In this document: in pieces, positions 10,369 to 60,903 of the stretch | How the letters are laid out: every line of letters starts with the position of its first letter | Position numbering within the stretch: position 1 is the first letter of the stretch | Assembly: GCA_964531475.1 (NCBI GenBank) | Contig: CAZHCS010000001.1 | Coordinates: forward strand, 14,712-78,711 | Source of the DNA: an uncultured Candidatus Saccharibacteria bacterium | Lineage (GTDB): Bacteria; Patescibacteriota; Minisyncoccia; Phycocordibacterales; CSBR16-119 | Reading direction: 5' to 3' | DNA: 64,000 nt | Notes under the pieces: generated by a model | The model's input: only the letters and a program-made list of their open reading frames with translations | Database searches by the model: none | What the model was told of the DNA's origin: nothing | Program-made: the position numbers and the translations under genes

Positions 10369-12515
10369 TCTTCAATTATAAGCAATTTCTCGGGATTTCC
10401 GTTGTGGATGAGCTGCCAGATCTCTTCGGTCACGAACGGCATAAACGGGTGGAGTGTTTTTAGACAATTGCGAAGAAGCGTATGGAGTGTGCGTTTTCGT
10501 GACGCGGCTTCTGGGCCAGCGAGTACAGATTTACTGTCTTCCAAAATCTTGTCGGCCAATTCGTTCCAGATGTAGTGGTAAATCTTTTCGCTCGCGAGGT
10601 GTAGGCGCATGGCTTCCATATCTGCAGTAATATCGCCAAGGATTTCCATCTGTGCGTTGAGTAGTTTCTGATCGGCTTCTGCGAGGGCAGAGTTCATATC
10701 TGGCGCGTCGGCGTTTTGTAGGATAAAACGCGTAATGTTCCAAACTTTGTTCGCGAAGTTCTTGTAGCCTTTGATTTTGTTCTCGTCGATGCGCATGTCG
10801 GTGCCGGGTGCTGTGCCGACAAGTAAAGCCATACGAGCAGCGTCGGTGCCGAATTTCGCTGCAACCTCTACAGGGTCGAGACCATTTCCGAGTGATTTGC
10901 TCATCTTGCGACCTTTGGCATCACGGACGGTTCCGTGGAGATAAACGTATTTAAAAGGAACTTCTCCTAGTACGTATTCAGTCATGAGAATCATGCGGGC
11001 GATCCAGAAGAACAAGATCTCGTAGCCGGTCTCGAGGACATTCGTCGGATGAAAGAATTTGAGATCCTCGGTTTTCTCTGGCCAGCCGAGCGTTGAAAAT
11101 GTCCAAAGCGCGGACGAGAACCATGTGTCGAGTGTGTCTTCGTCCTGCGACCAGCCTTCACCTTCGGGCGCGCTGATGCCGCAGTGGATTTCTCCGCCCT
11201 TGTACCAAACAGGAATTCGGTGCCCGTACCAAATCTGCCTGGAAATGCACCAATCGCGCAAATTGTCGATCCAGTGAAAATACGTCTTTTCGAAAAAGTC
11301 GGGGAGGATTTTGATCCGGCCGTCGGTAACAGGGTCGCGGGTGAGGTCCTTGAGTGTTTTTGTGTCGCGGCCTGGAATATCCTTGTTCACGGCGACGAAC
11401 CACTGGAGTTTTGGCAACGGTTCGACAATTCCGTTCGTGCGTTCGGCAGTGCTGACGTTTTGTTTTACGGATTCTTCTTTTTCAAGCAAGCCCTGATCTC
11501 GGAGCCATGCGACAATCACTTCACGCGCTTCGGTTGTCTTCTTGCCGAGAATTTCAACGCCCCCGACGGACATTTTGGCGTATTCGTTGATGACGGGAAT
11601 TATTGGCAAATTATTCTTCTCGGCAATTTCCCAGTCGATCATGCTGTGAGCCGGCGTGACGCCGAGCGCGCCCGTGCCGAATTCCATAGCAACCGATTCG
11701 TCAGCGATGATTTTGATCGACAATTTCACTCCACAGAAATCATCCACTACATAGGTCTTGCCTATGTAATCTTTGTATCGCGCATCGTCAGGGTGTACGG
11801 CCACGGCGACATCGCCGACTTTTGTTTCGGGGCGAGTCGTGGAGATGCTGATAGGGAAGTCTTTTGAGTATTTGAACGTATAGAGCTTTGCTTCCCGCTC
11901 TTCATACACGATTTCGTCGTCAGAAATTGTCGTCTGACCTTTTGGGTCCCAGTTGACGATCCGGTGCGCGCGGTAGATGAGCCCGTCGTCATACATTTTT
12001 TTGAAGACCGTGTTGACGGCGAGATTTCTTTTTTCATCAAGTGTAAACGCTTCGCGCGACCAATCGCACGACGCACCGAGCGTTTTGACTTGCGAGACTA
12101 TGGTGTCATGGGAATTTTGTGCAAATTCGCGGACGCGTCGCAATAATTCCTCGCGACCCAAATCGTGACGTGACTTGCTTTCGCTTTTCTGGATTTCTTT
12201 TTCGACTTTGGACTGCGTGGCGATAGCGGCGTGGTCGGTCCCGGGGAGCCAGAGTGTACGTTTGCCGCGCATGCGTTGGAAACGGATGAGCGTGTCTTGG
12301 ATTGTCGTGCCGAGTGCGTGGCCCATATGTAGGACTCCAGTCACGTTTGGTGGCGGCATCATGATTGTAAATGGTTCTGGGCGATCGCCAGGCAAATTGT
12401 CAGGATTAAAATAGCCGGATTCTTCCCACAGCTTGTAGATGCGAGATTCGGTGTTTTGTGGATCATATGCCGAGAGGAATTTCTCGGGAATATTGGGGAA
12501 TTGCTTTTCAGTCAT
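10344..12515 (-). CDS. valS: valine--tRNA ligase (short form without C-terminal coiled-coil)
   Basis: HMGH (VLHMGHALG), KMSKS, and the TTRPET motif characteristic of ValRS. 723 aa. Confidence 0.85.
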   Translation of the reverse strand: MTEKQFPNIPEKFLSAYDPQNTESRIYKLWEESGYFNPDNLPGDRPEPFTIMMPPPNVTGVLHMGHALGTTIQDTLIRFQRMRGKRTLWLPGTDHAAIATQSKVEKEIQKSESKSRHDLGREELLRRVREFAQNSHDTIVSQVKTLGASCDWSREAFTLDEKRNLAVNTVFKKMYDDGLIYRAHRIVNWDPKGQTTISDDEIVYEEREAKLYTFKYSKDFPISISTTRPETKVGDVAVAVHPDDARYKDYIGKTYVVDDFCGVKLSIKIIADESVAMEFGTGALGVTPAHSMIDWEIAEKNNLPIIPVINEYAKMSVGGVEILGKKTTEAREVIVAWLRDQGLLEKEESVKQNVSTAERTNGIVEPLPKLQWFVAVNKDIPGRDTKTLKDLTRDPVTDGRIKILPDFFEKTYFHWIDNLRDWCISRQIWYGHRIPVWYKGGEIHCGISAPEGEGWSQDEDTLDTWFSSALWTFSTLGWPEKTEDLKFFHPTNVLETGYEILFFWIARMILMTEYVLGEVPFKYVYLHGTVRDAKGRKMSKSLGNGLDPVEVAAKFGTDAARMALLVGTAPGTDMRIDENKIKGYKNFANKVWNITRFILQNADAPDMNSALAEADQKLLNAQMEILGDITADMEAMRLHLASEKIYHYIWNELADKILEDSKSVLAGPEAASRKRTLHTLLRNCLKTLHPFMPFVTEEIWQLIHNGNPEKLLIIEEWPISISK

Positions 12516-24784: not shown

Positions 24785-26524
24785 CTAGAGCATCTCCGGG
24801 TTGATCCGGATCTGCCAATCGGGGCCGAGAGAGGCGAGGATGCTCGAGAGATGCGGGTTTTGGAATAATTCGTTCCATTCATTCTTTGCGAGCTTCATGA
24901 CGATGACGGTTTCAAATGCCTTGCCGCGTTTGATTCGGCGTGGGAGCGGGGACCAGTCGGCGAGCATGGTGAGGAGTGGTGCAGCGACGCTTTCGAAATC
25001 GTCTTTTGGAGGGATACGCGACAAGCGGACGATCGTGCCAAATGGCGGATAGCTAAACTTTTCTCGCATGAGTTTTTCTGATTCGTAAAATTTTGCGAGG
25101 TCACCACTTGTCGCGGCAATGATGGCTGGCGTGCTTGGTTCGCGGGTTTGGAGAAATACATTATCGGATAGTTTTCCGATGGCCAGCGCGAGACGGAGCA
25201 TCTTTTCATACACACGAAATGACGGAAGCGAGAGAAGTGCGTCCATGGAAATGACGGCAGCGACATCGAGGCGTTTCTCGAGGTACGGCAACGCGAGTTC
25301 CGTACCGACGAGAATCGCATTATTCGACGCGTAAAACTTTTCGATGACCTCGCGGACTTTTTTGTCAGTTTTGACTGTGTCGCCGTCGATTTGAAAAATT
25401 TCTTTTTTCGGAAATAGTTTTTCTGCTTCTTGTGCCACTGTGTCCGTGCCGATACCGAGCGAATCGAAATTCCAACTGTCGCATATAGGGCAGCGTGTGC
25501 GAGTGTCTAGTACAGTGTTAGTGAGTGGGTTGATTAGTATACGCTGGCCGCCACGTTCACGAAGTGCGAGCGGTGTATCGCCGTCTTTTAATATGTGTCC
25601 GCAATCGTGACAGACGACAGAGCTCGCCAAGCCTTTTTTGAGCGAAAAGAGAAATGCGTGCTTTGATTCGCGAACAGCTTCGAACACTGCGCTTGAAAAG
25701 ATAAAACTTTTCTTATATCGCGCTTCCTTATCACTCATGTCGCAAGTATTCAAGGTCGAACCTTGAATACTTGGAATCGGGAGATATTGTTCGACGATCG
25801 TTTCGAGTGTCGTTGGATTTTCAAATATAAGTTTTGTGTTTAGGGATTTTGCAAGTAGTCGAGCAAAGACGCGCAGGTCGAAATAGGGACGCTTGATTGT
25901 GCGGTAGGCGGCGTTGCCTTCGTCGTGAATGATGATGGTGCCAAGATCGTGTCGTGGTGTGAAAAGAAAAGTTGGCGTCATAACGACGGTAATAGGATTT
26001 GTGCACTCTAATATTTCCTTGTAACGGGCGAAAAGAGTTTTCTTGCGCAAGCTTCCATGAATAATGAATGTTCTATCGAGGTCGAACTTCGATAGATTTT
26101 CATAAAGTTTTTCGGCGGCGCGGACGGTCGGCGCGATATGAAAGATAGTTGTGCCGACCGTCCGCGCCGCCGGTTTCGGCAACTCTTGGTGCTTGGTCAA
26201 GAACTCCGACGGAATAAAATAATTGATGATCTGGCCCAAGTTTCCAGCCGAAAAATCACGCGCGGCGCGGCACCCTTCGAAAAATTCTCTATAGAAGGGT
26301 GCCGCGCCGCGCTTCTCGCGCACTTTCCGTAATGCAAAATCAGAACCTTTGACATCTATCTTTCTTTTCGCCAAGTCGTCAACCGCGACTACTAGTGCAT
26401 CATAGGTTTTTTTTCGTATGTCTATAGACACGATATCGCCGACACTAATATCTTTGGACGAAAAATAGGTGAGCGAGTCTTTCGCGACTTTGTCGGTGAT
26501 TGGTGAGACTTCGATAAGCTTCAT
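24785..26524 (-). CDS. primosomal protein N' (PriA)-like, with degenerate helicase motifs
   Basis: The N-terminal 3'-DNA-binding-like region and the Cys-rich zinc-binding region (CHDCGH...CPICDSW) align to PriA. HIAPTVRAA stands where Walker A GxGKT should be, and IIIHDEG replaces DEEH. It carries an in-frame P2 insert. Confidence 0.55.
   Translation of the reverse strand: MKLIEVSPITDKVAKDSLTYFSSKDISVGDIVSIDIRKKTYDALVVAVDDLAKRKIDVKGSDFALRKVREKRGAAPFYREFFEGCRAARDFSAGNLGQIINYFIPSEFLTKHQELPKPAARTVGTTIFHIAPTVRAAEKLYENLSKFDLDRTFIIHGSLRKKTLFARYKEILECTNPITVVMTPTFLFTPRHDLGTIIIHDEGNAAYRTIKRPYFDLRVFARLLAKSLNTKLIFENPTTLETIVEQYLPIPSIQGSTLNTCDMSDKEARYKKSFIFSSAVFEAVRESKHAFLFSLKKGLASSVVCHDCGHILKDGDTPLALRERGGQRILINPLTNTVLDTRTRCPICDSWNFDSLGIGTDTVAQEAEKLFPKKEIFQIDGDTVKTDKKVREVIEKFYASNNAILVGTELALPYLEKRLDVAAVISMDALLSLPSFRVYEKMLRLALAIGKLSDNVFLQTREPSTPAIIAATSGDLAKFYESEKLMREKFSYPPFGTIVRLSRIPPKDDFESVAAPLLTMLADWSPLPRRIKRGKAFETVIVMKLAKNEWNELFQNPHLSSILASLGPDWQIRINPEML
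25745..25775 (-). repeat. P2 palindromic insert (copy 2), in-frame in the priA-like gene
   Basis: Identical 31 nt to 14541-14571. Encodes PSIQGSTLNT within ...EQYLPIPSIQGSTLNTCDMS... Confidence 0.85.
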
Positions 26525-29027: not shown

Positions 29028-29543
29028 ATGAAAGTGAAAGCACTGCTGATCGCGGTGGCCCTCGCGGCTATCGCTCCGGTGTCGGCCTCGCCGCCGCCGG
29101 ATAATCCTGAACGCCATTTCTGCTTCGAAGACAAGTTGGACTACGCGATGATCAAGGACGACGCCAGCCCATTCGGCTTCCGCTACAGCACCATGCTGGT
29201 GGTCCTCGAGAACAAGTACAGCGCCGCAACGGCCGTGCTGTCCGCCCCGGACCCCGGGGTGCCGCCCGACGTCGGGTGGAACTGTTCCAGCGATATCATC
29301 TACAGCCAATCCGATTTCAACTTGAACCTCAACAGCAGTTGCCAAGCGGCCGTGATGTGGATGGACCCCGACGTGGGCATCAGCGCATCGCAGAAGTACG
29401 CCTTGGTTGAAGAAAGTGATCAGCAGTTCGGCCCGAGGTGCTCACATGAGAGCGCCGGCCTACCCAGTGCAAGCACCAGTGTGGTGGTGAGCGATGCGCC
29501 CTTGCAGGCGAACGTCGCGCCGCGACCGGTGTGGCGATGTTAG
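29028..29543 (+). CDS. secreted cysteine-containing protein (hypothetical), markedly GC-rich
   Basis: Signal peptide MKVKALLIAVALAAIAPVSA. Strong G/C at third codon positions, unlike neighbouring genes. Has its own promoter and terminator. Confidence 0.55.
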   Translation: MKVKALLIAVALAAIAPVSASPPPDNPERHFCFEDKLDYAMIKDDASPFGFRYSTMLVVLENKYSAATAVLSAPDPGVPPDVGWNCSSDIIYSQSDFNLNLNSSCQAAVMWMDPDVGISASQKYALVEESDQQFGPRCSHESAGLPSASTSVVVSDAPLQANVAPRPVWRC

Positions 29544-32550: not shown

Positions 32551-33795
32551 ATGTTCCCAGGAATGGAGGCTATAACTTTGCCGACAGCCGAGATTATCGA
32601 GCGTTCACTCTCGCTCATTTTGTATTTGGCGCCATTACTTCTTATACCGCTTGGCTGGCGACTTTGGGTTGAGCATAGAAACGCGGACTGGATCTCGAAT
32701 ATAAAATGGATACTAATAGAAGTTAAAATCCCGCGTGATATTTACAAGTCGCCACAAGCCATGGAAATGGCACTTGGCAACGCACTTCTTCAGGGCGGCG
32801 GTGTCGGTGAGCGCTATAAGCGATATTGGGAGGGCAGGGTACTTTTTTGGTTTTCACTCGAAATTATTTCTACCGAAGGTGACATACATTTTTATATTCG
32901 TGCGCCAAAGCAGTTTAGGAACGTGATTGAGAGTCAGATTTACGCTCAGTATCCCGAAGCCGAAATAGGCGAGGTCGCTGACTACACGCTGCCAGTGCTC
33001 GCTTCTATGCGCGAAGAAGAGTGGGCTATGTGGGGCACCGAATTCAAGTGCACAAAAGAAGAGGCTTATCCTATCCGAACATATGCCGACTTCGGACTCG
33101 ACAAGCCTATATCCAAAGCCGAAGACGCAGCCGGATTAATCGATCCAATAACCCCACAGATTGAGTGGATGGGTACAATGAAGAAAGACGAGCATGTTTG
33201 GTTTCAAATCATCGTGCGCGCATCCAAAGACAGTTTTTCGACGGGTGGCTTGTTTCCGAAAAAAGTTGATTGGAAAACCCGTGCAAAAAATGTCATTAAA
33301 GAGATCCAGGAAAAATATGACTCAACAGACTCGATTGAGCTTTTGGGTAAGCGCCTGAAAATGTCCAAGACCGAGCAAGAAGCTATTGCGGCTATTGAGC
33401 GTAGTCTAAGTAAACCAGCTTTTGATATAGGAATGCGCGCCATATATTTGGCCAAGAAGCCAGCATTTCGTGGGGAAAATATCACAGGTCTTACCATGAT
33501 GTTGCGACAATACGGCTCTGGACATTTGAACAGTTTTGCGCCGACGCGCTCGACGGACTTTCCAAATCCATGGGATGACCCATCAGGAAAGAAAAAGCTC
33601 GAGCTAAAAAGGAACATGCTCCATGCGTACATCGACCGAGGCTGGTTTTATCCGCCGCACAAGCGTCCGCATTTTGTTTTGACATCAGAAGAGCTCGCTA
33701 CGGTATTTCATTTTCCTGGTCGTGTTTCGACTACGCCTACGTTCAAGAGAATCGAGTCAAAAAAATCCGAACCTCCAGTCAATTTGCCTGTCTAA
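32551..33795 (+). CDS. hypothetical membrane-associated protein
   Basis: 414 aa with an N-terminal hydrophobic segment and no recognised motif. The start codon is uncertain. Confidence 0.45.
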   Translation: MFPGMEAITLPTAEIIERSLSLILYLAPLLLIPLGWRLWVEHRNADWISNIKWILIEVKIPRDIYKSPQAMEMALGNALLQGGGVGERYKRYWEGRVLFWFSLEIISTEGDIHFYIRAPKQFRNVIESQIYAQYPEAEIGEVADYTLPVLASMREEEWAMWGTEFKCTKEEAYPIRTYADFGLDKPISKAEDAAGLIDPITPQIEWMGTMKKDEHVWFQIIVRASKDSFSTGGLFPKKVDWKTRAKNVIKEIQEKYDSTDSIELLGKRLKMSKTEQEAIAAIERSLSKPAFDIGMRAIYLAKKPAFRGENITGLTMMLRQYGSGHLNSFAPTRSTDFPNPWDDPSGKKKLELKRNMLHAYIDRGWFYPPHKRPHFVLTSEELATVFHFPGRVSTTPTFKRIESKKSEPPVNLPV

Positions 33796-38328: not shown

Positions 38329-38373
38329 TGTTTTCAACTTCTTTGTCGCGCAGGTTTGGCGTATACTGGACGC

Positions 38374-39507
38374 ATGTTGTTTTCTTCTCGTAAAGAAGAG
38401 TTTGTGCTCGTGCTTGATATTTCGTCGGGAAGCGTCGGCGGCGCGTTCTTTTTAAAACGTCCGTACGCGCCGCCGTTTGTGGTCGAGTCTGTCCGTACAG
38501 TTTTGCCGCTTCGCGAAGAACTCGATACCGCGCGTCGCACGGCCGACATGCTTCGTGCCGTCGACGAAACTTGTCGTCAGTTACAGCGTTCTATAGCTCG
38601 CCGTCCGGATAAAATAGTTTGTTTGCTTGCGACACCTTGGGCTTATGGTCATGTGCGTTCAATAGCTTACCAGGCCGAAGAATTTTCCGTCACTGAAAAA
38701 CGCATCCGCACTCTTGTTGATGCCGAAATGGATAGATTTCGTTCCGAGTGGCAAAATCTTTCCGAAATCATAGACAAGCGTGTAATCAAAGTCTCGCTGA
38801 ACGGTTACACTATCGAGCGACCGCATGGCAAGCGTGCACGTACTCTTGATATCGATATTTTTGCGAGCTTAAGTGATGGCCGGCTTATTGCTAGGCTCGA
38901 AGAAACTATTCACAAGACATTCAAGGCCAAAATCGCTCTCATGTCCCGCACCGCGGCAGATTTTATCGCTGTGCGAGACATGTTCGAACTCCAAAACGAC
39001 TTCATAATACTAAGAGTTGGAGAAGATACCTCAGAGGTTTCGGTTATGAGAGACGACTGTTTGGTCGGCACGGCATTTTTCCCATTTGGGACCCAAGGCG
39101 TCGCGCGATCGGTCGCCGCCGCGCTTGGTATTTCGACGACACGCGCCGCTTCGCTTCTTGCTACTTATCGCCTTGGACTTTTAGATGAGGATCACGCAAC
39201 ACGATTTATAGACTCACTAGAACATATTGGAATAGATTGGTTGCGAGAGCTCGCTGGTATCTTGGTACGGCTAGTACCTGATCGCCATATACCGCATGCG
39301 GTTTTCGTAGTTGCAAGTGACGAAATGGATACATGGTTCCGATCTTTGGTTTCTATTTCACGTATCCCGGAATTCACACTAAGCTTTGATGATTTCCATG
39401 CTATACTTGCTGACAAGAAGACGCTGGCGCAGTTTGCCGAATTCCGTTCCGGCGTCGAGAAAGATCCGTCGCTTATTATGGCGGCGGCAGTCATAAATCG
39501 TCTATGA
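38374..39507 (+). CDS. actin-like ATPase family protein (PilM/FtsA-like), tentative
   Basis: N-terminal phosphate-1-like LVLDISSGSVGGAFF. Otherwise divergent. Confidence 0.3.
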   Translation: MLFSSRKEEFVLVLDISSGSVGGAFFLKRPYAPPFVVESVRTVLPLREELDTARRTADMLRAVDETCRQLQRSIARRPDKIVCLLATPWAYGHVRSIAYQAEEFSVTEKRIRTLVDAEMDRFRSEWQNLSEIIDKRVIKVSLNGYTIERPHGKRARTLDIDIFASLSDGRLIARLEETIHKTFKAKIALMSRTAADFIAVRDMFELQNDFIILRVGEDTSEVSVMRDDCLVGTAFFPFGTQGVARSVAAALGISTTRAASLLATYRLGLLDEDHATRFIDSLEHIGIDWLRELAGILVRLVPDRHIPHAVFVVASDEMDTWFRSLVSISRIPEFTLSFDDFHAILADKKTLAQFAEFRSGVEKDPSLIMAAAVINRL

Positions 39508-40799
39508 CACCTATGCAAAAAAATTACATACACGACATCAAGCCATCAGGCCGCACTCAAAAGCGCCGAGAGGCATTTCATCGTGCTCACGAAAGGCGCA
39601 TGCACGAAGTAGAAGAAACTTACGACGATCGTCGTTATGAATCTGGCGGAGGAAGTTCTCGCGGAATGTGGTACATCGCAGCGTTTGCGTTGGCAGCGCT
39701 TGTCTTTGCTCTTACGTATGTCTTTGCTGGCGCAACAATAACAGTCACGCCGCGTACCGGTTCTGTAGAGCTATCCGGCCCGATTCTCGCAGAAAAGGAA
39801 TCTCGCAATGGTCTTTCTTTCGAGATGCTAGTTTTAGACGCAGAAGAAAGTTCAAGTGTAGCCGCAGGTGAAAAGCGCTATGTCGAGCGCAAGGCAACCG
39901 GACGAGTTCGACTTTTCAATGATCATTCTTCCTCTCCACAAAAACTTCTAATAGATACTCGTCTTGAAAGTCCCGAAGGACGTATTTACAAAACCAAGAC
40001 CCCAGTGACGATACCTGGACAGACTATTGCAGGAGGTAAAAAGACTCCGGGTTCTGTCGAGGTAGATATATACGCCGATGAGGCTGGCGAAGCTTACAAC
40101 ACTACAGAATCTGATTTCAAAATAGTCGGCTTTAGAGGTTCTCCAAAGTATGAACATTTTTATGCTCGCTCCATTACTCCGATAAGCGGTGGTTTTCGCG
40201 GAGACACTTATGATATTGGCGATGATGTTTTGGCTAGCGAGACAGAAAGGCTTCGTGCTGAGCTTCGTGAAAAACTCGTAGAGCAGGCCGGAGCGGAGTT
40301 ACCGACTGACTTTGTAATGTACGAAGACGTCGCCACATTCTTGTTTGACGAACCAGTAGTCGAAGAGGGATCCGATGGCTCTGTTGTGGTTCGCCAGGGC
40401 GGTGTCATGAACGCAGTAATATTCAAAGAGTCCGATCTTACAGACGCTATCGTCGATCGTGTTATTGCCGACAAAGAAGACAATCAAGTACGCATTCCTA
40501 ATATAAGAGAGTTAACCATAATGCTTGATCCTAAGAGTGTAATAACCGATCCAGAATCCATGACAGACATAAAACTTTTGATAGATAGTCGTGTCGAGGT
40601 GGTTTGGGAAGTAGAAGAAGCCGCCATAAAAGAGGCTTTGGCTGGGTCAAAGAAGCGGACATTTGATAGCACGATGCTTTCCTTCAAGAACATAGACAAA
40701 GCGGAACTCAAATTAAAACCATTCTGGAGATCGTCGTTACCCGAAAAGGTGGGATCAATAAAGATTATAAATACGCTGGAAAACGGTGATCAAATTTGA
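39504..40799 (+). CDS. hypothetical single-pass membrane protein
   Basis: 431 aa. Basic cytoplasmic N-terminus, TM (WYIAAFALAALVFALTYVFAG), large extracytoplasmic domain. Start overlaps the upstream gene's stop. Confidence 0.4.
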   Translation: MTPMQKNYIHDIKPSGRTQKRREAFHRAHERRMHEVEETYDDRRYESGGGSSRGMWYIAAFALAALVFALTYVFAGATITVTPRTGSVELSGPILAEKESRNGLSFEMLVLDAEESSSVAAGEKRYVERKATGRVRLFNDHSSSPQKLLIDTRLESPEGRIYKTKTPVTIPGQTIAGGKKTPGSVEVDIYADEAGEAYNTTESDFKIVGFRGSPKYEHFYARSITPISGGFRGDTYDIGDDVLASETERLRAELREKLVEQAGAELPTDFVMYEDVATFLFDEPVVEEGSDGSVVVRQGGVMNAVIFKESDLTDAIVDRVIADKEDNQVRIPNIRELTIMLDPKSVITDPESMTDIKLLIDSRVEVVWEVEEAAIKEALAGSKKRTFDSTMLSFKNIDKAELKLKPFWRSSLPEKVGSIKIINTLENGDQI

Positions 40800-44908: not shown

Positions 44909-44954
44909 TCCTGCGAAGCCTTGGCGAAGAAGGATTAACGAAATATTCACAAAA

Positions 44955-44975
44955 AGCCCCGCGAGGGGCTTTTTG
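44955..44975 (+). terminator. intrinsic terminator after rpsI
   Basis: AGCCCC-gcga-GGGGCT followed by TTTT. Confidence 0.7.
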
Positions 44976-45023
44976 CTTGACGCATTTAGGTAATTAAGGT
45001 AAGTTGGGCAAAACCTTACAACC

Positions 45024-45557
45024 ATGGGACTTTTCAGCTTTCTAGCTACTGAACGTAGACAAAAGAGTAAACAGGCTGCTCTTGAAACGCAGTGGGAGAA
45101 GAACAGTGAATACATCCATCGGATCATCGATGGTCACTATCATTTGGCCTCGGAAATCTCCGAAGAAGAAAAGGCAATGTCGAAAAAGTCTTTCGATGCT
45201 TGGATGAGAAAGGAGTATGAAAGTTGGCAAGCCGTTCCCCGGCAGACACACCAAAGGAGAATGGAGGCAATTGAAGAAAACCTTCCGAACAACTTTATGT
45301 GGAAGGAGTGGAGAGAAGGTGAAGTTCTTGAAGAAGTGTTTCTCAATGCTTTCACTGAGCCGTTCCCTTCGACCCATGATATGCCTGAGTGGGCAGTTTC
45401 TACGAAGGTCGCCGATCTACTGATCTTGAAGGACGTCTCGATCAGGGATTCTACGAACTATCGTGTGAAGATCAGGCATCACTATGTGAACCACAACATG
45501 ATCAAGGGGATCATCCAGTTCGATCTCTATAAGCTGGAGACTTACGCGAATAATTGA
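45024..45557 (+). CDS. hypothetical protein
   Basis: 177-aa ORF bracketed by two terminators. No recognised motif. Confidence 0.45.
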   Translation: MGLFSFLATERRQKSKQAALETQWEKNSEYIHRIIDGHYHLASEISEEEKAMSKKSFDAWMRKEYESWQAVPRQTHQRRMEAIEENLPNNFMWKEWREGEVLEEVFLNAFTEPFPSTHDMPEWAVSTKVADLLILKDVSIRDSTNYRVKIRHHYVNHNMIKGIIQFDLYKLETYANN

Positions 45558-45573
45558 CCTCACCAAGGTTGAA

Positions 45574-45598
45574 GGCGCTCCGCACGGGGCGCCTTTTT
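45574..45598 (+). terminator. intrinsic terminator
   Basis: GGCGCTCC-gcac-GGGGCGCC followed by TTTTT. Confidence 0.65.
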
Positions 45599-45657
45599 CG
45601 TTTCTTAATACCTAATACTTACTACTTACTATTTACTTCGTGCTAAAATAAAAATCT

Positions 45658-47328
45658 ATGACCCAAGCTGAAGCTCTCCAAATCCTCAAAACCGGCGCCA
45701 ACGTTTTCCTGACCGGTGCGCCGGGTGCGGGCAAGACGTATGTGCTCAATCAGTACATCAAGTACTTGAAAGAACATGACATTCCCGTTGCGGTTACGGC
45801 TTCGACCGGTATCGCCGCAACGCACATTGGCGGCGTGACAATACATTCGTGGTCGGGTATTGGCGCGCGCGACAGTATTTCCGATATAGAGGCCGACGCT
45901 CTCGAAGGCAAGCATTACCTCTGGAAGCGTTACGAAAAAACTAAAGTCCTCGTCATCGACGAGATATCCATGCTCTCGGCCGGGCTTCTGGATGCCGTCA
46001 ATAAAGTTTGTCGTGGGTTCAAAAGAAATACGGCACCTTTTGGAGGAATGCAGGTGGTTTTTGTTGGCGACTTTTTTCAGCTTCCGCCGATTACAAAAAA
46101 AGGCGACGAACCAAAATTCGCGTTTGAGTCCGAGGCCTGGAAAGAAACCAATCCGCTCGTGCTCTACATCACCGAACAGCACCGCCAAGAAGACGATACA
46201 CTTTTGTCTGTTCTCGATCGTATTCGTCGTGGCGACATAGAAGACGAATTCGTCGACCTATACGACCGCCTAAACGTCGAGCTGCCCGACACGACGCGCG
46301 CCACGCGGCTCTTTACGCACAATGTCGACGTCGACGGGCTCAATGCCGAAGAGCTAGACAAACTAGACGACGAAGAGCGTTACTACGAAATGGAAACGGA
46401 GGGCAAAGAAAATCATGTCGAGCGACTCATCGCTTCATGTCTTTCGCCCGAACAACTGTGTCTCAAGCGCGGAGCCGTTGTCATGTGCACGAAGAATAAT
46501 TTTGACAAAGGTTTCGTCAACGGTACGCTCGGCGAAGTGACCGATTTTGAAGACGATACAGATTTTCCTATCATCACTACCAACGACGGTCGGCAGATTG
46601 TAATCGAGCCCGACGAGTGGGCGATCCAAGACGGCGATAAACGGCTGGCGGTTATTCGCCAAGTGCCGCTTCGTCTTGCCTGGGCTATTACCGTACACAA
46701 GAGTCAGGGCATGAGCCTCGATGCTGCGCAGATTGACCTCGGGCGCGCGTTCGAATTCGGCCAGGGTTATGTCGCGCTATCGCGAGTGCGGACGCTCGCG
46801 GGCCTCTCGCTCCTTGGGTTCAACGCAAATGCATTGATGGTTCATCCGAAAGTCATGCAGGAAGACGCTCGCTTGCGCAAAAAATCCGAAGACATCGCGG
46901 CGTATCTGGGCACAAAGAGTGAAGAAGACATGAAAAAATCCCACGAAGAATTCATAACTCGTGTTGGCGGCTCGATCGACGTTATCGACCTGGCCGCGCG
47001 GGAAGCCGAAGATGAACGCATTTCAACTTTTGAAAAAACAAAGCGCATATTACTCGAAGGCAAATCTATTGCCGAGATCGCAACAGAGCGCGGCCTGACC
47101 GACCAAACGGTTATCGACCACTTGGAAACGCTCGTCGACAAAGGTCTCATTTCCGTCGACAAGCTTGATCACATCCGTCCCAAGACGCGCGCTTTTGCCG
47201 ACCTGGTAGCGACATTTCAATCCGTTTACGACGCAACAGGGGAGACGAACCTCGCGCCGGTCAAACGCAAGGCTCCAAAAGCCTCGTACCGCGACATTCA
47301 ATTGGCCCGCATTTTCCTGAATAAATAA
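45658..47328 (+). CDS. PIF1/RecD-like ATP-dependent DNA helicase with a C-terminal HTH domain
   Basis: Walker A GAPGAGKT, PIF1 signature VVFVGDFFQLPPI, Walker B VLVIDEISM. The C-terminal ILLEGKSIAEIATERGLTDQTVIDHLETLV is HTH-like. Confidence 0.7.
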   Translation: MTQAEALQILKTGANVFLTGAPGAGKTYVLNQYIKYLKEHDIPVAVTASTGIAATHIGGVTIHSWSGIGARDSISDIEADALEGKHYLWKRYEKTKVLVIDEISMLSAGLLDAVNKVCRGFKRNTAPFGGMQVVFVGDFFQLPPITKKGDEPKFAFESEAWKETNPLVLYITEQHRQEDDTLLSVLDRIRRGDIEDEFVDLYDRLNVELPDTTRATRLFTHNVDVDGLNAEELDKLDDEERYYEMETEGKENHVERLIASCLSPEQLCLKRGAVVMCTKNNFDKGFVNGTLGEVTDFEDDTDFPIITTNDGRQIVIEPDEWAIQDGDKRLAVIRQVPLRLAWAITVHKSQGMSLDAAQIDLGRAFEFGQGYVALSRVRTLAGLSLLGFNANALMVHPKVMQEDARLRKKSEDIAAYLGTKSEEDMKKSHEEFITRVGGSIDVIDLAAREAEDERISTFEKTKRILLEGKSIAEIATERGLTDQTVIDHLETLVDKGLISVDKLDHIRPKTRAFADLVATFQSVYDATGETNLAPVKRKAPKASYRDIQLARIFLNK

Positions 47329-47409
47329 GGGTTTTCCACAGGCCATTGACATTTGGTTATTCTTTGTTGTATAATCTGGACAAAACCTGCACCCCAAAAA
47401 CGCTACACC

Positions 47410-48201
47410 ATGAAAAATGCGACAATTGCCCTGTTGCTACTGGCGCTGTGCGCGCCAGTGAACACTTCGGCTCAGATCGTGTTCGGTCTGTCGTCTGCGC
47501 AAAATGCCGATTGTACGAACAAGGGTTCGATCAATCTTTCCGTCGTCCCTCAGGTCGGCGGATCGTACGCGATCAACCTTTTCTCAAGCGGCTTCCTGAC
47601 GCAGATCAATGGCACCGAGTCGATCGTCGACTCGACGCTCGAGATGCTGCCAGGTACTGTTACCGGCAATGCCACGTTCTATGACAGCCTTGGCATGTGG
47701 GCCGCGAGCTACCAAGTGATCCCGCTCATCGTCTCGCAAACGTGTGTTGTAACTGTCGCCTGCGAAGGCAACGCGACCGTTATCCATCCGTCGAACGGAG
47801 AGGTGACGTTCCATGTCAACGGTGAAGTTTTCGAGGGCGAAGAAGATCTCGAGCTCACAGTTGATACAGCGAACGTCCAAGTCTACACCGGTTATGGGGT
47901 CCAAGTGTTCTCACAAACAGTGTACGACACCTGCGGCACCACGACCGGCACGCCCGAGCGGCCCGAACGCCCTGCGCCGACAGTCTTTCCGAATCCAGCG
48001 ACAGACGGCTCCGTGACCATCCTGGCCGAAGGCTACGATGAGTACGCGATCTACGACGTGCTCGGCGAGCTGCGTCAGAGCGCCCGCTTCGAAATGAGTG
48101 GGAAAGCGATCATCGATCTGCGAGGCTTTCCGAGCGGTCGTTACATCGCGCATGTGTCGTCGGCAACGGCGCATCACATTATCCGCTTCGTGGTCTTGTA
48201 G
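47410..48201 (+). CDS. secreted protein with SprB-like repeat and T9SS-type C-terminal sorting domain (Bacteroidota-type)
   Basis: Signal peptide MKNATIALLLLALCAPVNTSAQ. CTNKGSINL...GGSYAINL resembles an SprB repeat. The C-terminal VFPNPATDGSVTI...IDLRGFPSGRYIAHV resembles the Por secretion tail. GC-richer. Confidence 0.55.
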   Translation: MKNATIALLLLALCAPVNTSAQIVFGLSSAQNADCTNKGSINLSVVPQVGGSYAINLFSSGFLTQINGTESIVDSTLEMLPGTVTGNATFYDSLGMWAASYQVIPLIVSQTCVVTVACEGNATVIHPSNGEVTFHVNGEVFEGEEDLELTVDTANVQVYTGYGVQVFSQTVYDTCGTTTGTPERPERPAPTVFPNPATDGSVTILAEGYDEYAIYDVLGELRQSARFEMSGKAIIDLRGFPSGRYIAHVSSATAHHIIRFVVL

Positions 48202-48310
48202 CTACCTACATCTTGCAAGCCGTCCTCTTAGAGGGCGGCTTGTTTGCTTGTGATTGACTTTTCACACTCGGGAGCGCAAGATGATCTTGGACCAACTAAA
48301 ACCCTGCTCC

Positions 48311-49393
48311 ATGAAAATTTTTTCCTTCCTCGCGATGCTCGCGACGCCTTTTCTGGCCTTTGGCCAAACAGTGAACTGGATGCCGTACGAACGCCCTGGC
48401 GATTGTGCTGGTAATGGTACCGGGATCATCTACGACTTGTGGGACCCGGATGGCATTATCCTAAACCCTGCTACCGCGTATATCGTGAGCTACTACGGTG
48501 CTGGCGATTCGCTTGGCCTACCGATCGACACCTTTGGGCTTGTCACTGGTGAATTCCATGACTCGATTCCATTGCCATCGATCAATATCTCGACGCACAA
48601 TGTCGACTCTAGCCATCGTGCGACCGTGTACTACCAATACTTCGAGTGGATGATCATGGCTGCTGTGGACTGGCAGCAATCGATATTTGTCGACTCGCTT
48701 ACGATGGAGTGCGACATAGTCGAAGTCTGTCACGGCGACTCTGTACAGACGAATGGCGGCGTCGGTGTGTGGTTCCAGAATATGGCGCCGCTTGGCGTCG
48801 GAACGTCAGTCGATATTTCTGACACCGGCACTGTAGTGCTTGTTCCCGAACTTCTCTACACGGGCCGATATGACAACTGGACACCCATCATGCAATTTGT
48901 CGATCCGACTTGGGCTTCGGCAGCTGTCATGCACACCTGTGACAACCAGCATACCGGAGCTATTATGGTGTTGCCTGATGGAACCTCTCCATACGTTTAT
49001 AGTCTAAACGGCGTAAACAGCAATTTCCCCGTGTTTCCTGGATTGGATGCCGGTACCTATGTTGTAAGCGTTAGCGACTCAGACGGATGCAATATCGAAT
49101 TCGAAGAGATCGTGCTCGATACGTGTGATGTAATTACGAGCATCTCGGAAAATGTCGTTACCGAAAATCCGAAGCTCTACCCGAACCCAGCGAGCGATAT
49201 CGTTTACGTTATCGTCGAAAGCTTTAGTTCTTACGAGCTACACGATTACGCGGGACGAATCGTTGCATCTGGCACACTCGCGGAAGGGAAGAATGTTCTC
49301 GAGGTATCGACTCTTGCAGCTGGCGCGTACCGCGTGCTGCTTCGGTCGAGCGATGGGCGCACATCTCCTGCTACGTTTGTGGTCGCGAGGTGA
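48311..49393 (+). CDS. secreted protein with SprB-like repeats and T9SS-type C-terminal sorting domain
   Basis: Signal peptide MKIFSFLAMLATPFLAFGQ. CDNQHTGAIMVLPDGTSPYVYSLNG...LDAGTYVVSVSDSDGC is a good SprB-repeat match. The C-terminal LYPNPASDIVYV...STLAAGAYRVLL is CTD-like. Confidence 0.6.
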   Translation: MKIFSFLAMLATPFLAFGQTVNWMPYERPGDCAGNGTGIIYDLWDPDGIILNPATAYIVSYYGAGDSLGLPIDTFGLVTGEFHDSIPLPSINISTHNVDSSHRATVYYQYFEWMIMAAVDWQQSIFVDSLTMECDIVEVCHGDSVQTNGGVGVWFQNMAPLGVGTSVDISDTGTVVLVPELLYTGRYDNWTPIMQFVDPTWASAAVMHTCDNQHTGAIMVLPDGTSPYVYSLNGVNSNFPVFPGLDAGTYVVSVSDSDGCNIEFEEIVLDTCDVITSISENVVTENPKLYPNPASDIVYVIVESFSSYELHDYAGRIVASGTLAEGKNVLEVSTLAAGAYRVLLRSSDGRTSPATFVVAR

Positions 49394-49519
49394 GGTGAAC
49401 TTTCAAAGAGAGGCGGCGCGGGCAAAGCCCGCGCCGCTTTTTCTATCCCAAGCATCAGACATTGACAAGAAACAATAAAGATGATAAAGTACCATACAAA
49501 CCTACGTAAAAAACGTACC

Positions 49520-49918
49520 ATGAAAAAAGCAGGCCTTGTGGCACTTCTCATTGTTCTCTGCAGCTTCGGCTCGCAGTCCGACGCATCAGACCTCATCCAA
49601 AAGCGAATCACAGCTGGCGAGCGCTTTCTGTCGTTATTCGACTCGATACCGCGTTTGCGAGACAATTCCACAGAGGGTATCTATGCCATGCATTACGCTC
49701 GTGTAGTTAGTTATGCCATTGATAGCTTTGACGAAGCCATTCCTCAAGCGCGTCTCTGTGAAGAAATGAGTCGGGTGGAATGCCTGTCGCCCGAGCAGAG
49801 CAAGATGCTGAAAGAGCAGACCAGTATCGTGTTGGGCGAGATGCAGAATGATCTCAACACGATGATGGCGTACACCGATTCACTCTCCCTGCTTGTCAGG
49901 ACTGCGAAGAAGAAGTAG
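49520..49918 (+). CDS. hypothetical secreted protein
   Basis: Signal peptide MKKAGLVALLIVLCSFGSQSDA. 132 aa from the internal ATG. Confidence 0.4.
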   Translation: MKKAGLVALLIVLCSFGSQSDASDLIQKRITAGERFLSLFDSIPRLRDNSTEGIYAMHYARVVSYAIDSFDEAIPQARLCEEMSRVECLSPEQSKMLKEQTSIVLGEMQNDLNTMMAYTDSLSLLVRTAKKK

Positions 49919-49963
49919 CTTGAGCGTACGAATAGCAAAGAGCGTCCTCCGGGACGCTCTTTT

Positions 49964-50482
49964 CTATTGCAGGCCGAAACTTTCGATTAGAGATTTCTCA
50001 GTAACGGGATCGATATGCTGCGTGACGACGATCATGATTTCGTCGTGGAGACCGAGATCGTTTTTAATATTAAGGAAGAGATGTTCGAAAGGGTATGGCG
50101 AGACCCAGACAGAATTTTTCATACAGAGAAATCCTGCTTTCTTGAGGATATAGCGGATTGAGTCGCGCTCGCTCTTGCGGCTCTCCGGCAGGTCGAGTAT
50201 AACCATGCGCCAAAAGCCATCCCAGCGCGTGTCGACGAGAGATTTCGGGTTCGAGAGCTTTATGGAGCGTAGTTTTTGGCGACCCTCGGGGGTGAGGCGG
50301 AGGAATGACGACTGCGCTGTTTCTAGTTCCTCGACCAAGCCGGCCTCGGAAAGGTTCTTGAGGCTCCTGGTCATAGCATAACGGTCTTTGGCCTCGGGAG
50401 GGGTCAAATTTTCGCGATTTACAGCCTTTTTGCCGGCCAATTTTTCCAATATTTCTTCTTGGATCTTGGACTTTCTTGACAT
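49964..50482 (-). CDS. PaaX-like winged-helix transcriptional regulator (paralog 1)
   Basis: N-terminal wHTH, then C-terminal WDGFWRMVILDLPESRKSERDSIRYILKKAGFLCMKNSVWVSPYP matching PaaX_C (WDGxW..V...P.....R...R..L...GFG....VW..P). Confidence 0.55.
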   Translation of the reverse strand: MSRKSKIQEEILEKLAGKKAVNRENLTPPEAKDRYAMTRSLKNLSEAGLVEELETAQSSFLRLTPEGRQKLRSIKLSNPKSLVDTRWDGFWRMVILDLPESRKSERDSIRYILKKAGFLCMKNSVWVSPYPFEHLFLNIKNDLGLHDEIMIVVTQHIDPVTEKSLIESFGLQ

Positions 50483-54348: not shown

Positions 54349-54388
54349 TGGTGATTATATCTAACCATATGTTAGAATATAATCACCA
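54349..54388 (+). promoter_or_regulatory. palindromic operator-like site TGGTGATTATAT-N16-ATATAATCACCA overlapping a TATAAT box and the ATG of the PaaX-like paralog 2
   Basis: 12-bp perfect arms. The inner part is nearly palindromic (CTAACCATATGTTAG). TATAAT at 54378-54383. Confidence 0.5.
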
Positions 54389-54963
54389 TGAAGATTGAAA
54401 AGGGGAGGGAAAATTTAGACTACAAGGAAATAATTCTGAAGTCTGTTTTGGTCGTGGGAATTATCGGAGTTGCTATGGTTGCGCCGAATGCGTTGCAGGT
54501 GGTTAAGTTTTTCGAAAAGGATAAGGGTTACAAGGAGCGTAAGTATGCCCTCAACAAAAAGATTTTTGTTTTAGAGAGAAACGGATTTATAAAATTTGTT
54601 TCGAGAGGCGACAAGAAGTTCGTGACACTTACGTCAAAAGGGAGGAAAGAGATCGAGAAGTATCTTTTAAATGATCTAGAGATTAAAAGACCGAAACGGT
54701 GGGACAAGAAATGGCGGATTGTTAGTTTCGATATCAAGAATACGCGAACGCCACTTAGAAATTTATTTCGGCACCATCTAAAACGGCTTGGATTTGTCCA
54801 ATATCAGAAGAGTATCTGGATCCATCCTTTTGAATGCGAAGAGGTGATTATTATGATGAAGTCGTATTTCAAATTTGGCAAAGAGGTGATGTATATTGTT
54901 GCTGAGCATCTAGAGAATGACAAAAAATTAAAACAAGAATTCAACCTTATTTCATACACGTAG
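54388..54963 (+). CDS. PaaX-like winged-helix transcriptional regulator (paralog 2), strongly AT-rich
   Basis: WDKKWRIVSFDIKNTRTPLRNLFRHHLKRLGFVQYQKSIWIHPF gives the same PaaX_C pattern as 49964-50482. Much lower GC than the surroundings. Confidence 0.55.
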   Translation: MKIEKGRENLDYKEIILKSVLVVGIIGVAMVAPNALQVVKFFEKDKGYKERKYALNKKIFVLERNGFIKFVSRGDKKFVTLTSKGRKEIEKYLLNDLEIKRPKRWDKKWRIVSFDIKNTRTPLRNLFRHHLKRLGFVQYQKSIWIHPFECEEVIIMMKSYFKFGKEVMYIVAEHLENDKKLKQEFNLISYT

Positions 54964-55085: not shown

Positions 55086-55571
55086 TCAGTTCGATTTTCT
55101 ATACGCCATGATCTGGTCGATCTCGCGGCGAAAGAATTTCTGGAACTCTTCCCAGGTCCATGATCCCGCGGAGCGTATACAGGTCTCACGTGGCGGTGAA
55201 ATGAGTGTGACCCCGGTTGCTAGCACTTCTCGTTTAGTCTGTCTTATGATGCAGACATGGATATCTACAAAGTAGACGGTGTCCTTCTCTTTCACGTTGA
55301 TCCGTCGATACCATGAACCTCCATTCGCCGGGTTCTCGATCATCTCCAGATCAACCTCGTCCTTCTTGGTAGTGTCCGCATAGATGGCGTATTTCCCACT
55401 ATCCAATGCGAAATCGTATCCGAAAAGGGGATTCCTACCAGGACGTTCATGGGCTGTATTAGCGGCCTGGAGCAGTTCGTCGAAGTTGGTTGCGATCCGC
55501 AGAGTGTCTTGGGCGCAACTGAAAACGGGGAGCAGCAGACCCATTATAAGGGTCTTGAAAATCTTGTTCAT
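55086..55571 (-). CDS. hypothetical lipoprotein
   Basis: Signal peptide with lipobox-like LPVFSCAQ. 161 aa. Confidence 0.45.
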   Translation of the reverse strand: MNKIFKTLIMGLLLPVFSCAQDTLRIATNFDELLQAANTAHERPGRNPLFGYDFALDSGKYAIYADTTKKDEVDLEMIENPANGGSWYRRINVKEKDTVYFVDIHVCIIRQTKREVLATGVTLISPPRETCIRSAGSWTWEEFQKFFRREIDQIMAYRKSN

Positions 55572-58437: not shown

Positions 58438-58845
58438 ATGAAGCACCTTCTCACCGCCATTACGGCGATCATTCTCAGCTGCACGAACGTCTTCGCCCAG
58501 AGCAACTCTGTGAACCAGGCGCCGACCTGCTATCGGTCAATGGATCCGGAATTGGTCAACCAGTACGTGCCAGGTTCTGCACCGTCGATCGACAGCCTGG
58601 AGGTTTCTCCTCTTGGCCAAGACACACTGTTGGTTTCCTTCAATGTTTCCTCGGTGTGTTACCCGGTGTACTTCCATGACGAGACCAACGCCCGCATCGA
58701 CAGCACGTTCTCTGACGGCCGGACTGATATCCGTTTGTGCTACGCGCTCAACGATGTCGGCCAGTATTCCTACTGGTTCAGCGCCAGCAACACCCGGGGC
58801 AAGACGGTTGAAAGCAGGAACCCGAATAGGGTCCCAAAGAAGTAA
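58438..58845 (+). CDS. small secreted protein (hypothetical), GC-richer
   Basis: Signal peptide MKHLLTAITAIILSCTNVFAQ. 135 aa with four Cys. Confidence 0.5.
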   Translation: MKHLLTAITAIILSCTNVFAQSNSVNQAPTCYRSMDPELVNQYVPGSAPSIDSLEVSPLGQDTLLVSFNVSSVCYPVYFHDETNARIDSTFSDGRTDIRLCYALNDVGQYSYWFSASNTRGKTVESRNPNRVPKK

Positions 58846-59508: not shown

Positions 59509-60903
59509 TTAGAAGTCTTCAAGGCTGTTTTTGCTTGCAGAAGGTACGCCGGCGTAGTCGGCGCCTTTTTCGACCGATAGGAAAGTGGAATTTTTTTCGT
59601 CGAAATACAGGTCGACTTTACCGACCGGACCGTTGCGGTGTTTTTCGATCAGGATTTCAGCCATGCCGGTTGATTCGGCGTCGGTACGGGTACCGGTGCG
59701 GTCTTCACGGTGGATAAACATGACAACGTCGGCGTCTTGTTCGATGGATCCCGAGTCGCGTAGGTCGGAGAGGCGTGGTTTGCCGCCGCGGCTTTCGACT
59801 GCACGAGAAAGCTGCGATAGCGCAAGGACGGGTACGTCGAGTTCGCGGGCGAGGCCCTTTAGAGAGCGCGAAATTTCTGTCACTTGGTTAACCATACTGT
59901 CGTAATTTTTCGTCGTGTTCATGAGCTGCAAGTAGTCGACAACGATAAGTCCAAGACCGAACTCACTCTTGAGGCGTCGCGCCACAGACTTCATCTTGAT
60001 GATACTGTTGCCGGCCTGGTCGTCGATATAAATCGGCGCACTCGAGAGCTCGTTTAGAGAGTCGCGGATTTTGGAGAACTCATCTTCGCGAGTAATTTTT
60101 CCAGTGCGGAGTTTCCAGGCGTCAACTTTGGCATGAGCAGAAAGCATGCGCTGGGTCAGCTGCTGCGAGCTCATTTCCAAAGAAAAGATACCGACCGGGA
60201 TTTTGTGTTGGACGGCGGCATTTCTCGCAATATCAAGCGCAAGCGTCGTCTTACCAACCGATGGTCGCGCTGCCAAGATAATGAGGTCTGATTTCTGGAG
60301 GCCTGCCAACATATTGTCGAGACTCGGATAGCCAGTCGGGACGCCGCGCATGCCGCCCTTGTCGTTGTGGAGCTTTTCTATCTCTTCCCAGGTTTGCATT
60401 AGGCTTTGCTTGAGCGATACGAAGTTTTGACCCTTTGGGTCGCTGGTCACAGAAAAGACTTTTTTCTCGGCATCGTCCATGATAGTTTCGACATCTTCGT
60501 CGCTTTCGGAAAAACCGATGGTCGCCAAGTGTTCACCAGCCTCGATGAGCTTGCGCATCAATGCCTTTTTGTAGACGATTTTGGCGTAGTGTTTGATATT
60601 GGCCGAAGCTGGGACCGAGTTAGTTAGGTCGGCCAAGTATGCGCGACCGCCGACTTGTTCGAGTTGGCCACGATTTTTGAGACTGGTTGAAAGCGAGAGT
60701 AAGTCGATCGGTTCGTTTTTGGAAAACAGATCTATCATGGATTTCCAAATAATGCGATGCTTTTCGGCGTAGAAAGAATCTGCCTGGATAATGTCCACGA
60801 CTTCGTTCAGTGCGTACGGTGAAAGCATGATAGAGCCGAGTGTTGCTTGTTCGGCGTCTAGGTCGTGAGGCGGGATGCGATTAGAGATTTTTGGTTCGGC
60901 CAT
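59509..60903 (-). CDS. dnaB: replicative DNA helicase DnaB
   Basis: N-terminal DnaB domain, Walker A ILAARPSVGKTTLALD, RecA-like core. Confidence 0.9.
   Translation of the reverse strand: MAEPKISNRIPPHDLDAEQATLGSIMLSPYALNEVVDIIQADSFYAEKHRIIWKSMIDLFSKNEPIDLLSLSTSLKNRGQLEQVGGRAYLADLTNSVPASANIKHYAKIVYKKALMRKLIEAGEHLATIGFSESDEDVETIMDDAEKKVFSVTSDPKGQNFVSLKQSLMQTWEEIEKLHNDKGGMRGVPTGYPSLDNMLAGLQKSDLIILAARPSVGKTTLALDIARNAAVQHKIPVGIFSLEMSSQQLTQRMLSAHAKVDAWKLRTGKITREDEFSKIRDSLNELSSAPIYIDDQAGNSIIKMKSVARRLKSEFGLGLIVVDYLQLMNTTKNYDSMVNQVTEISRSLKGLARELDVPVLALSQLSRAVESRGGKPRLSDLRDSGSIEQDADVVMFIHREDRTGTRTDAESTGMAEILIEKHRNGPVGKVDLYFDEKNSTFLSVEKGADYAGVPSASKNSLEDF

Follow-up and report, generated by a model that had tools for sequence, protein, structure and literature searches.

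The C-terminal tail of type IX secretion system (T9SS) cargo is the sorting signal by which proteins of the Bacteroidota cross the outer membrane. The described proteins that carry such a C-terminal domain (CTD) of type A, and with which the locus presented here is compared, include RemA/RemZ and the SprB-family adhesins of Flavobacterium johnsoniae, the gingipain RgpB and the mirolase of Tannerella. The tail is treated as a marker of outer-membrane secretion in the Bacteroidota and in the FCB group (Fibrobacterota, Chlorobiota and Bacteroidota). Here we report canonical type-A tails that are resident, conserved and strain-variable in the genome of an ultra-small bacterium of the Candidate Phyla Radiation (CPR, or Patescibacteria), and that lie in the most strain-variable locus of this chromosome. 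They are encoded by two adjacent genes, called A and B in the following, in a 64-kb window of contig CAZHCS010000001.1, that is, the whole stretch of DNA that was analysed. All coordinates are positions of this window, and the region of interest is 47410-49393.

Like T9SS cargo, the predicted products of both genes combine a signal peptide for the Sec pathway, a beta-rich passenger and a CTD of about 70 residues, to which B adds an adhesin-type repeat. Unlike it, they are encoded in a chromosome of the Paceibacteria, a CPR lineage for which a monoderm envelope is proposed and no T9SS is reported. They also differ from SprB and RemA, with their long repeat arrays, in the single sub-threshold repeat of B, in their small size (263 and 360 aa) and in their orphan passengers. 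A further likeness is to the pili, adhesins and large surface proteins by which epibiotic Patescibacteria have been proposed to interact with hosts, since A and B would also be secreted, lineage-specific and fast-evolving products of a reduced genome, although they match no known CPR surface-protein family.

The interpretation favoured here, to which we would give a rough probability of 0.55, is that A and B leave the cell by the Sec pathway, vary between strains, act as surface or adhesin-like proteins and go back to FCB/Bacteroidota ancestors, and that the tail has been kept for a role outside the T9SS.

Type-A sorting tails in a Paceibacteria chromosome

An earlier description of the window, made from the letters alone (the sequence-only reading), had proposed two adjacent secreted proteins of Bacteroidota type on the + strand. 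Both genes, A (47410-48201, +, 263 aa) and B (48311-49393, +, 360 aa), are called identically in an independent Logan assembly. The signal peptides that had been assigned to both are found again by a hydropathy scan, with hydrophobic N-terminal segments at residues 5-23 of A and 3-21 of B and small residues at positions -1 and -3. The predicted signal peptides comprise residues 1-21 of A, ending in …NTSA, and residues 1-18 of B, ending in …AFG, and in both the cleavage site is followed by Gln, as in most secreted proteins of Bacteroidetes.

The same reading had both proteins end in about 70 residues of the Por-secretion type, and a search with hidden Markov models (HMMs) bears this out. With curated cut-offs of 27 bits for PF18962 and 23 bits for TIGR04183 (Por_Secre_tail), the tail of A reaches 34.1 and 32.1 bits and the tail of B 32.5 and 31.0 bits, respectively; the nine relatives tested all exceed the PF18962 cut-off as well (31.4-46.2 bits). 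The matches in A and B finish 1-8 residues before the stop codon. The domain corresponds to residues 192-263 of A (47983-48198, +), with FPNPATD, SGRYI and the end RFVVL, and to residues 289-360 of B (49175-49390, +), with YPNPASD, AGAYRV and the end TFVVAR; both tails have the PNP and GxY motifs known from T9SS cargo and a basic/hydrophobic last strand. When the tails of the B family are aligned with Bacteroidota-type CTDs, the P.P and G.Y columns are invariant.

At the level of sequence, the tail of B matches residues 299-355 of PDB 7pzj_A (E 6.6e-7), about 57 residues in the C-terminal part of a lipase of 366 residues, and a PDB sequence search with the profile of A gave nothing meaningful. 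For A, an AlphaFold2 model built from a shallow alignment, poor overall, shows a tail of seven strands with a predicted local distance difference test (pLDDT) of 60-75. This low-confidence tail model resembles the T9SS CTDs 8glk_D and 8qb1_A, on which it superposes with a TM-score per target of 0.77 and 0.70, and its only domain-sized matches in the PDB are T9SS CTDs and DUF3244, with E values of just 3e-3 to 2e-2. Judged by their sequences, the tails of A and B are real type-A T9SS sorting domains.

Gene content and gene order identify the window as core chromosome of a Paceibacteria bacterium. The best 80 relatives of its DnaK among the GTDB species genomes are all metagenome-assembled genomes (MAGs) of Patescibacteria/Paceibacterota/Parcubacteria type, 67-95% identical, and the gene order from S13 through DnaJ is common to the window and the related loci L048, L002, L003, L086 and L090. 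The recognisable genes are all housekeeping genes, including those for the ribosomal proteins S13, S11, S4 and S9, RpoA, GrpE-DnaK-DnaJ, the cysteinyl-, tryptophanyl- and alanyl-tRNA synthetases (CysRS, TrpRS and AlaRS), a further class-I aminoacyl-tRNA synthetase (10344-12515), FtsZ, FtsA, MreB, DnaB, RecR, ParB and RelA, together with two PaaX-like genes and five tRNAs.

The absence of a T9SS from this context, noted from the sequence alone, holds for the 50 window proteins scanned, among which no T9SS or outer-membrane family was found; the Pfam tables for L086 and L090 list none either. The literature speaks of a 'proposed absence' of the outer membrane in CPR bacteria, and a literature search found no paper linking the T9SS or its sorting domain with these organisms. 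Most probably the cell would be without an outer membrane and without a T9SS, in which case the tail cannot serve as a signal for outer-membrane translocation here. It might be objected that a signal peptide, a passenger and a type-A tail, in this order, are just what T9SS cargo consists of, and that 64 kb of the genome were inspected, so that A and B could be ordinary cargo in a lineage that has an outer membrane and whose T9SS genes lie outside the window. This is extremely unlikely for a genome whose DnaK, and whose gene order shared with 80 Patescibacteria MAGs, place it in the Paceibacteria, given also the missing families in the window and in the two Pfam tables and a literature search that found no discussion of the T9SS in CPR bacteria. 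As a caution for annotation, an organism should not be credited with a T9SS on the strength of the label 'T9SS type A sorting domain-containing protein'.

That Bacteroidota genes reached a CPR bin through contamination or a chimeric contig has nothing in its favour except the unexpected domain. Paceibacteria genes are syntenic on both flanks, positions 47117-49439 are reproduced at 100% identity in the independent Logan assembly, the arrangement recurs in ENA, NCBI and several Logan assemblies, and the promoter style, the lack of Shine-Dalgarno sequences and the codon usage fit the genome. An artefact is next to inconceivable, and a chimeric assembly is refuted by the independent assemblies.

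Conserved position and strain variability of the pair

The A-B pair recurs in L001, L082, L086, L087 and L090-L092, and further B alleles, with B alone, are found on the short contigs L093-L095. In at least five datasets besides this one, the site of the pair lies between rpsI and PaaX-grpE-dnaK. L082 (SRR29010201) covers the end of the helicase gene, A and B. L086, a 56-kb contig of SRR23592395, extends from S13 to S9 and on through A, B, a small open reading frame (ORF), PaaX, GrpE and DnaK, and L087, from an NCBI metagenome assembly, contains L13, S9 and A. A variant arrangement is seen in L090-L092 (ENA ERZ27275549, SRR5278607 and SRR33541897), where S9 is followed by a 160-aa ORF, a PaaX-like gene, a 303-aa CTD protein, a B-type protein and small ORFs, and then, in L090 only, by PaaX, GrpE and DnaK. 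Wherever flanks are present, the neighbours of the pair are always Paceibacteria genes.

Intact, full-length copies are kept in at least six datasets of a clade across which GrpE has diverged to about 70%. The pair is absent from the same slot in the next-nearest relatives, L002, L048 and L003, where other cargo occupies the slot: a secreted ORF of 127 aa, one of 178 aa with no family identified, and one of 202 aa. An HMM of the CTD that recovers untrained positive controls found no match in 1.44 Mb from 80 other Paceibacteria genomes. In a narrow clade the pair forms a resident locus that evolves fast, and it is not a recent acquisition by a single genome.

At this fixed position the sequences themselves differ strongly between strains. 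In comparison with L086, protein identity is 99.2% for DnaK, 98.8% for PaaX and 97.8% for CysRS, as against 74% for A and 35% for B, and the following gene, C, is unrelated. With respect to L086, A is conserved in its signal peptide and C-terminal half and strongly diverged in residues 22-118, with 0.54 nonsynonymous (dN) and 1.3 synonymous (dS) substitutions per site. The corresponding values for the tail of A are dN 0.012 and dS 0.216 against L086 (dN/dS about 0.06) and dN 0.061 and dS 0.62 against L087 (dN/dS about 0.10), which indicates that the tail is under purifying selection.

The alleles of A are mosaics of segments, and in B whole stretches are exchanged. The DNA of L082 is 96% identical over the helicase end, A and the A-B spacer (flank 47218-48317); similarity is lost over 48318-49251 (+), from the seventh base of B to the middle of its tail, and returns at 97% over 49252-49446. 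The L082 allele with this replaced cassette, P0002, has a homologous N-terminal domain that is about 30% identical to that of B. In L090, the first gene of the pair joins an unrelated orphan passenger to a related tail. The six B alleles are all intact; their mean identity is 28% in the N-terminal domain, 41% in the repeat and 36% in the tail, and the Gln after the signal peptide is invariant. As these comparisons indicate, the export signal and the tail are constant and the payload between them turns over.

With the ends of B 96-97% identical between near-identical strains and its middle replaced, with A as a mosaic of allele segments and with a divergence far above that of the neighbouring housekeeping genes, the locus is like known strain-variable surface-protein loci, such as the variable adhesin and antigen genes of many bacteria. 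It differs in that no silent cassettes, repeats, invertases or diversity-generating retroelements were seen nearby, although no systematic search for them was made, and its variation looks like allelic exchange within a population and not like a programmed switch. On a larger scale, DNA identity to L086 over 35801-57823 is mosaic, with about 70-72% in the ribosomal-protein/RpoA genes, 91% in AlaRS and 91-96% in PaaX-DnaK-DnaJ and CysRS-CorA, and this mosaic suggests frequent homologous recombination between diverged populations.

The sequence-only reading had allowed two fates for such genes, non-functional passengers or repurposed surface adhesins. According to the first, A and B are decaying or neutral passengers from a Bacteroidota donor, unsortable and without function. 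The family is indeed rare, the slot is a plasticity hot spot whose cargo differs among relatives, and A is richer in GC than the genome (57.3%, with 70% at third codon positions (GC3), z = +2.1, against a gene mean of 49.6%); the higher GC content that had been claimed for both genes applies to A and fails for B (52.1%, z = +0.7). Passengers of this kind are nevertheless strongly disfavoured, and in our judgement very unlikely, because intact copies stand at one site in at least six datasets across the clade, a consensus promoter and terminators are present, codon usage is ameliorated and ordinary for this genome in both genes, and the tail of A is under purifying selection (dN/dS about 0.06-0.1).

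Passengers, ancestry and possible role of the tails

SprB-like repeats had been described in both proteins, and what remains of this description is one repeat in B. PF13573 (SprB), with a gathering threshold of 28 bits, has no match in A or B even at E<=10. Residues about 206-272 of B (48926-49126, +), with the pattern C-x-G…SPYVYS…LDAGTYVVSVSDSDGC, match 3-6 separate repeats in each of the proteins P0003, P0004 and P0005, all of which have PF13573 (per-repeat E 1e-5 to 6e-8), and a small HMM of the repeat matches residues 215-260 (E 1.8e-8). At the same position, orthologues of B score 24.6, 21.6, 19.0 and 15.0 bits with PF13573, below the cut-off. The repeat is present in a single copy, with no tandem array as in SprB/RemA, and the module is missing from the L082 allele. 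A and the first 200 residues of B contain no significant SprB-type module (E 0.04-0.3); SprB repeats in A were rejected, as neither PF13573, nor repeat comparison, nor the repeat HMM gave a significant match.

The remaining parts of the passengers are orphans. In A, a variable beta module (about residues 22-110) is followed by a conserved core (residues 111-190) that contains the invariant VACEGNATVIHPSNGEVTFHVNGE, and the CTD makes up the remainder. In B, an orphan, Cys-containing and beta-rich N-terminal domain (residues 19-205) is followed by the SprB-type repeat, a linker and the CTD. An exhaustive HMMER search with this N-terminal domain against 1.84 billion representatives returned one unrelated repeat protein and five relatives, each about 350 aa long; P0002, P0013 and P0015, and thus no fewer than three of the five, come from the clade's locus. 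Four relatives are known for the A family; a metagenome scan with the A alignment returned the JACCDJ contig alone, which was already known, and a GTDB scan with B found no relative. The passenger of the 303-aa first gene of L090 proved to be likewise an orphan in a homologue search that asked for import from Bacteroidota. Within the N-terminal domain of B, residues about 125-151 (48683-48763), …SLTMECDIVEVCHGDSVQTNGG…, match 18 tandem repeats of the 1218-aa protein P0014, whose repeat pattern is …GCDSIIVLDL…EVCFGDS…WNG…; this hints that the orphan domain was also derived from an adhesin-type repeat.

Outside the clade, the homologues of B are solely proteins with both PF13573 and PF18962, and the one that was examined is encoded next to a second SprB/CTD protein, among genes of a rich metabolism that are not of CPR type. 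All members of the A and B families have Gln at position +1 of the predicted cleavage site (47470-47475 and 48362-48367 in the window). In Bacteroidetes, according to the 'Q-rule', Gln follows the signal-peptide cleavage site in most secreted proteins (PMC5837995). The domain architecture, the outside homologues with SprB and CTD domains and the Gln +1 signal peptides together make an FCB/Bacteroidota origin of A and B plausible. The acquisition from a Bacteroidota donor proposed earlier can be retained to this extent; no donor is identified, and the event was not a recent one in a single genome.

The Gln +1 pattern is not limited to the pair. It also occurs in several unrelated secreted ORFs of the clade (58438-58845, +; 55086-55571, -; and in L086 and L090). 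By a crude heuristic, 11 of the 19 candidate signal peptides from the window, L086 and L090 have [AGS]Q in their c-region, versus 15 of 137 from 80 further Paceibacteria loci (Fisher p = 1e-5, although the homologues among them are not independent). Much of the secretome of the clade may be of Bacteroidota origin, or the clade may have a glutaminyl cyclase.

On the favoured interpretation, the ancestor of a narrow Paceibacteria clade would have acquired a small family of FCB/Bacteroidota ancestry, which would since have stayed at one place in the chromosome, with the ribosomal-protein genes (their rpsI end) on one side and PaaX-grpE-dnaK on the other. A and B would be functional, Sec-exported, all-beta extracellular proteins that retain the signal peptide and the canonical beta-sandwich of the type-A CTD, with a passenger that is in very rapid evolution or is exchanged through recombination. 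The tail would most likely have been retained as a module by which the protein is held at the cell surface or which a partner recognises, and the variable passenger (with the SprB repeat in B) would contact other cells or surfaces, under diversifying pressure. Of the two fates considered in the sequence-only reading, that of repurposed surface adhesins is the option that the evidence favours, with the description as SprB-repeat proteins fitting B alone.

Several points weigh against this interpretation. The models are poor, with a mean pLDDT of 46.5 for A and 34.7 for B (the latter being unusable), and they do not establish how the passengers fold or, in consequence, that these act as adhesins. 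The low dN/dS of the tail of A would be expected of any folded domain, and at the deeper divergence of the B alleles the tail (36%) is no better conserved than the other domains (28-41%). In neither protein is an anchor visible, as there is no membrane segment beyond the signal-peptide-like one, no LPXTG and no lipobox, and A and B could simply be released once the signal peptide has been cleaved. The passengers are orphans, and no donor lineage was found. Finally, the absence of a T9SS and an outer membrane from the whole genome is extrapolated from the 64-kb window and from the taxon.

Either the tail domain has a second, unrecognised job, or it links the Paceibacteria clade to T9SS-bearing hosts. 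The clade might keep the tails since something reads them, be it PorV, PorU or PorZ of a host to which they dock or an undescribed anchoring pathway of monoderm CPR bacteria, but we regard this as improbable. Spelled out for the host, the tail would be a ligand for the surface-exposed T9SS carrier and attachment proteins (PorV, PorU/PorZ) of a Bacteroidota host, which would tether the epibiont or an effector. Such a ligand would agree with a tail that is canonical and conserved although a reader for it is not expected in the cell itself, with the Bacteroidota-like Gln +1 of the signal peptides and with a hypervariable passenger between constant signal peptide and tail, as in an arms race or a host-specificity locus. 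Solved translocon structures show the CTD bound to extracellular loops of PorV (PMC10994853), and the model of the A tail superposes, with the low confidence given above, on the PorV-bound CTD 8glk_D. In these structures, however, the known contact between CTD and PorV takes place inside the SprA pore and includes large contacts with SprA (PMC10994853), so that binding from outside is hypothetical; the identity of the host is unsupported by evidence, with no mention of the sample accessions found in the literature, and a constant tail acting as ligand gives no obvious reason for the diversification of the passenger. This role of the tail is by analogy conceivable and, on balance, unlikely. If it were true, an epibiont would use the secretion address of its host as an attachment handle, and the host phylum of a Paceibacteria lineage would be named. 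Little is known about which hosts Paceibacteria have and how they attach, and a small, clade-specific pair of predicted secreted proteins with a Bacteroidota signature is a testable lead.

Signals and neighbouring genes

A promoter-like site precedes A at 47346-47375 (+), with TTGACA, an 18-nt spacer and TATAAT (12 of 12 matches to the sigma-70 consensus), and is followed by a leader of 34 nt up to the ATG, without a Shine-Dalgarno sequence. Downstream of A there is a terminator-like hairpin (48215-48243, +) of 13 pairs with a T-rich tail, conserved in L082. A GC-rich hairpin of 11 G-C pairs stands 3' of B (49413-49437), is followed on the + strand by TTTTT (to 49445) and is kept in L082; it looks like a terminator for B, possibly working in both directions.

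The last gene of the variable slot, C (49520-49918, +; 132 aa from MKKAGLV…), has a promoter-like site at 49462-49490. It is the further secreted ORF that had been noted after the pair: it has an N-terminal hydrophobic leader, which a simple hydropathy scan did not score. C has no family in Pfam or NCBIfam and is 40% identical to a 118-aa ORF at the same position of L090.

A Shine-Dalgarno sequence is lacking in 41 of the 42 window genes checked. Foreign translation signals at A and B were considered and rejected, as the genome at large is without Shine-Dalgarno sequences. In many window genes a TGnTAnAAT-like -10 box ends 6-9 nt 5' of the ATG (e.g., 1971, 32551, 45658, 59509-60903 (-) and 61587), and this proximity suggests that leaderless or near-leaderless mRNAs are widespread in this genome.

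The plasticity hot spot in which the pair lies extends from rpsI to the PaaX-like gene (44909-49963). Two of its genes, one for an orphan ORF of 177 aa (45024-45557) and one for a helicase of PIF1 type that ends in an HTH_40 domain (45658-47328), are shared by the window, L048 and L003 but are missing from L086, L090 and L002. A prophage or mobile element was rejected, as no integrase or transposase family was found among the neighbours scanned. Small PaaX_M proteins (Cas2-like middle domain) flank grpE-dnaK-dnaJ on both sides (49964-50482, -; 54388-54963, +). In L090 they are located at 2070-2624 and 6516-7034, and L090 and L092 have an extra copy directly upstream of the CTD gene pair; these proteins may regulate either the heat-shock genes or the variable locus.

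Elsewhere in the window, two large conserved ORFs without a Pfam family (383 aa and 431 aa; 38356-40799, +) lie directly upstream of infA and rpsM and are conserved in L086. Two further large conserved ORFs without a Pfam family encode 414 aa with one N-terminal membrane segment (32551-33795, +) and 579 aa (24785-26524, -). A secreted ORF of 171 aa at 29028-29543 (+), with no family match and a signal peptide that ends in …PVSA before SPPPD, has the highest GC content of the window (61.4%, GC3 79.5%) and is a further candidate for a foreign or fast-evolving secreted protein.

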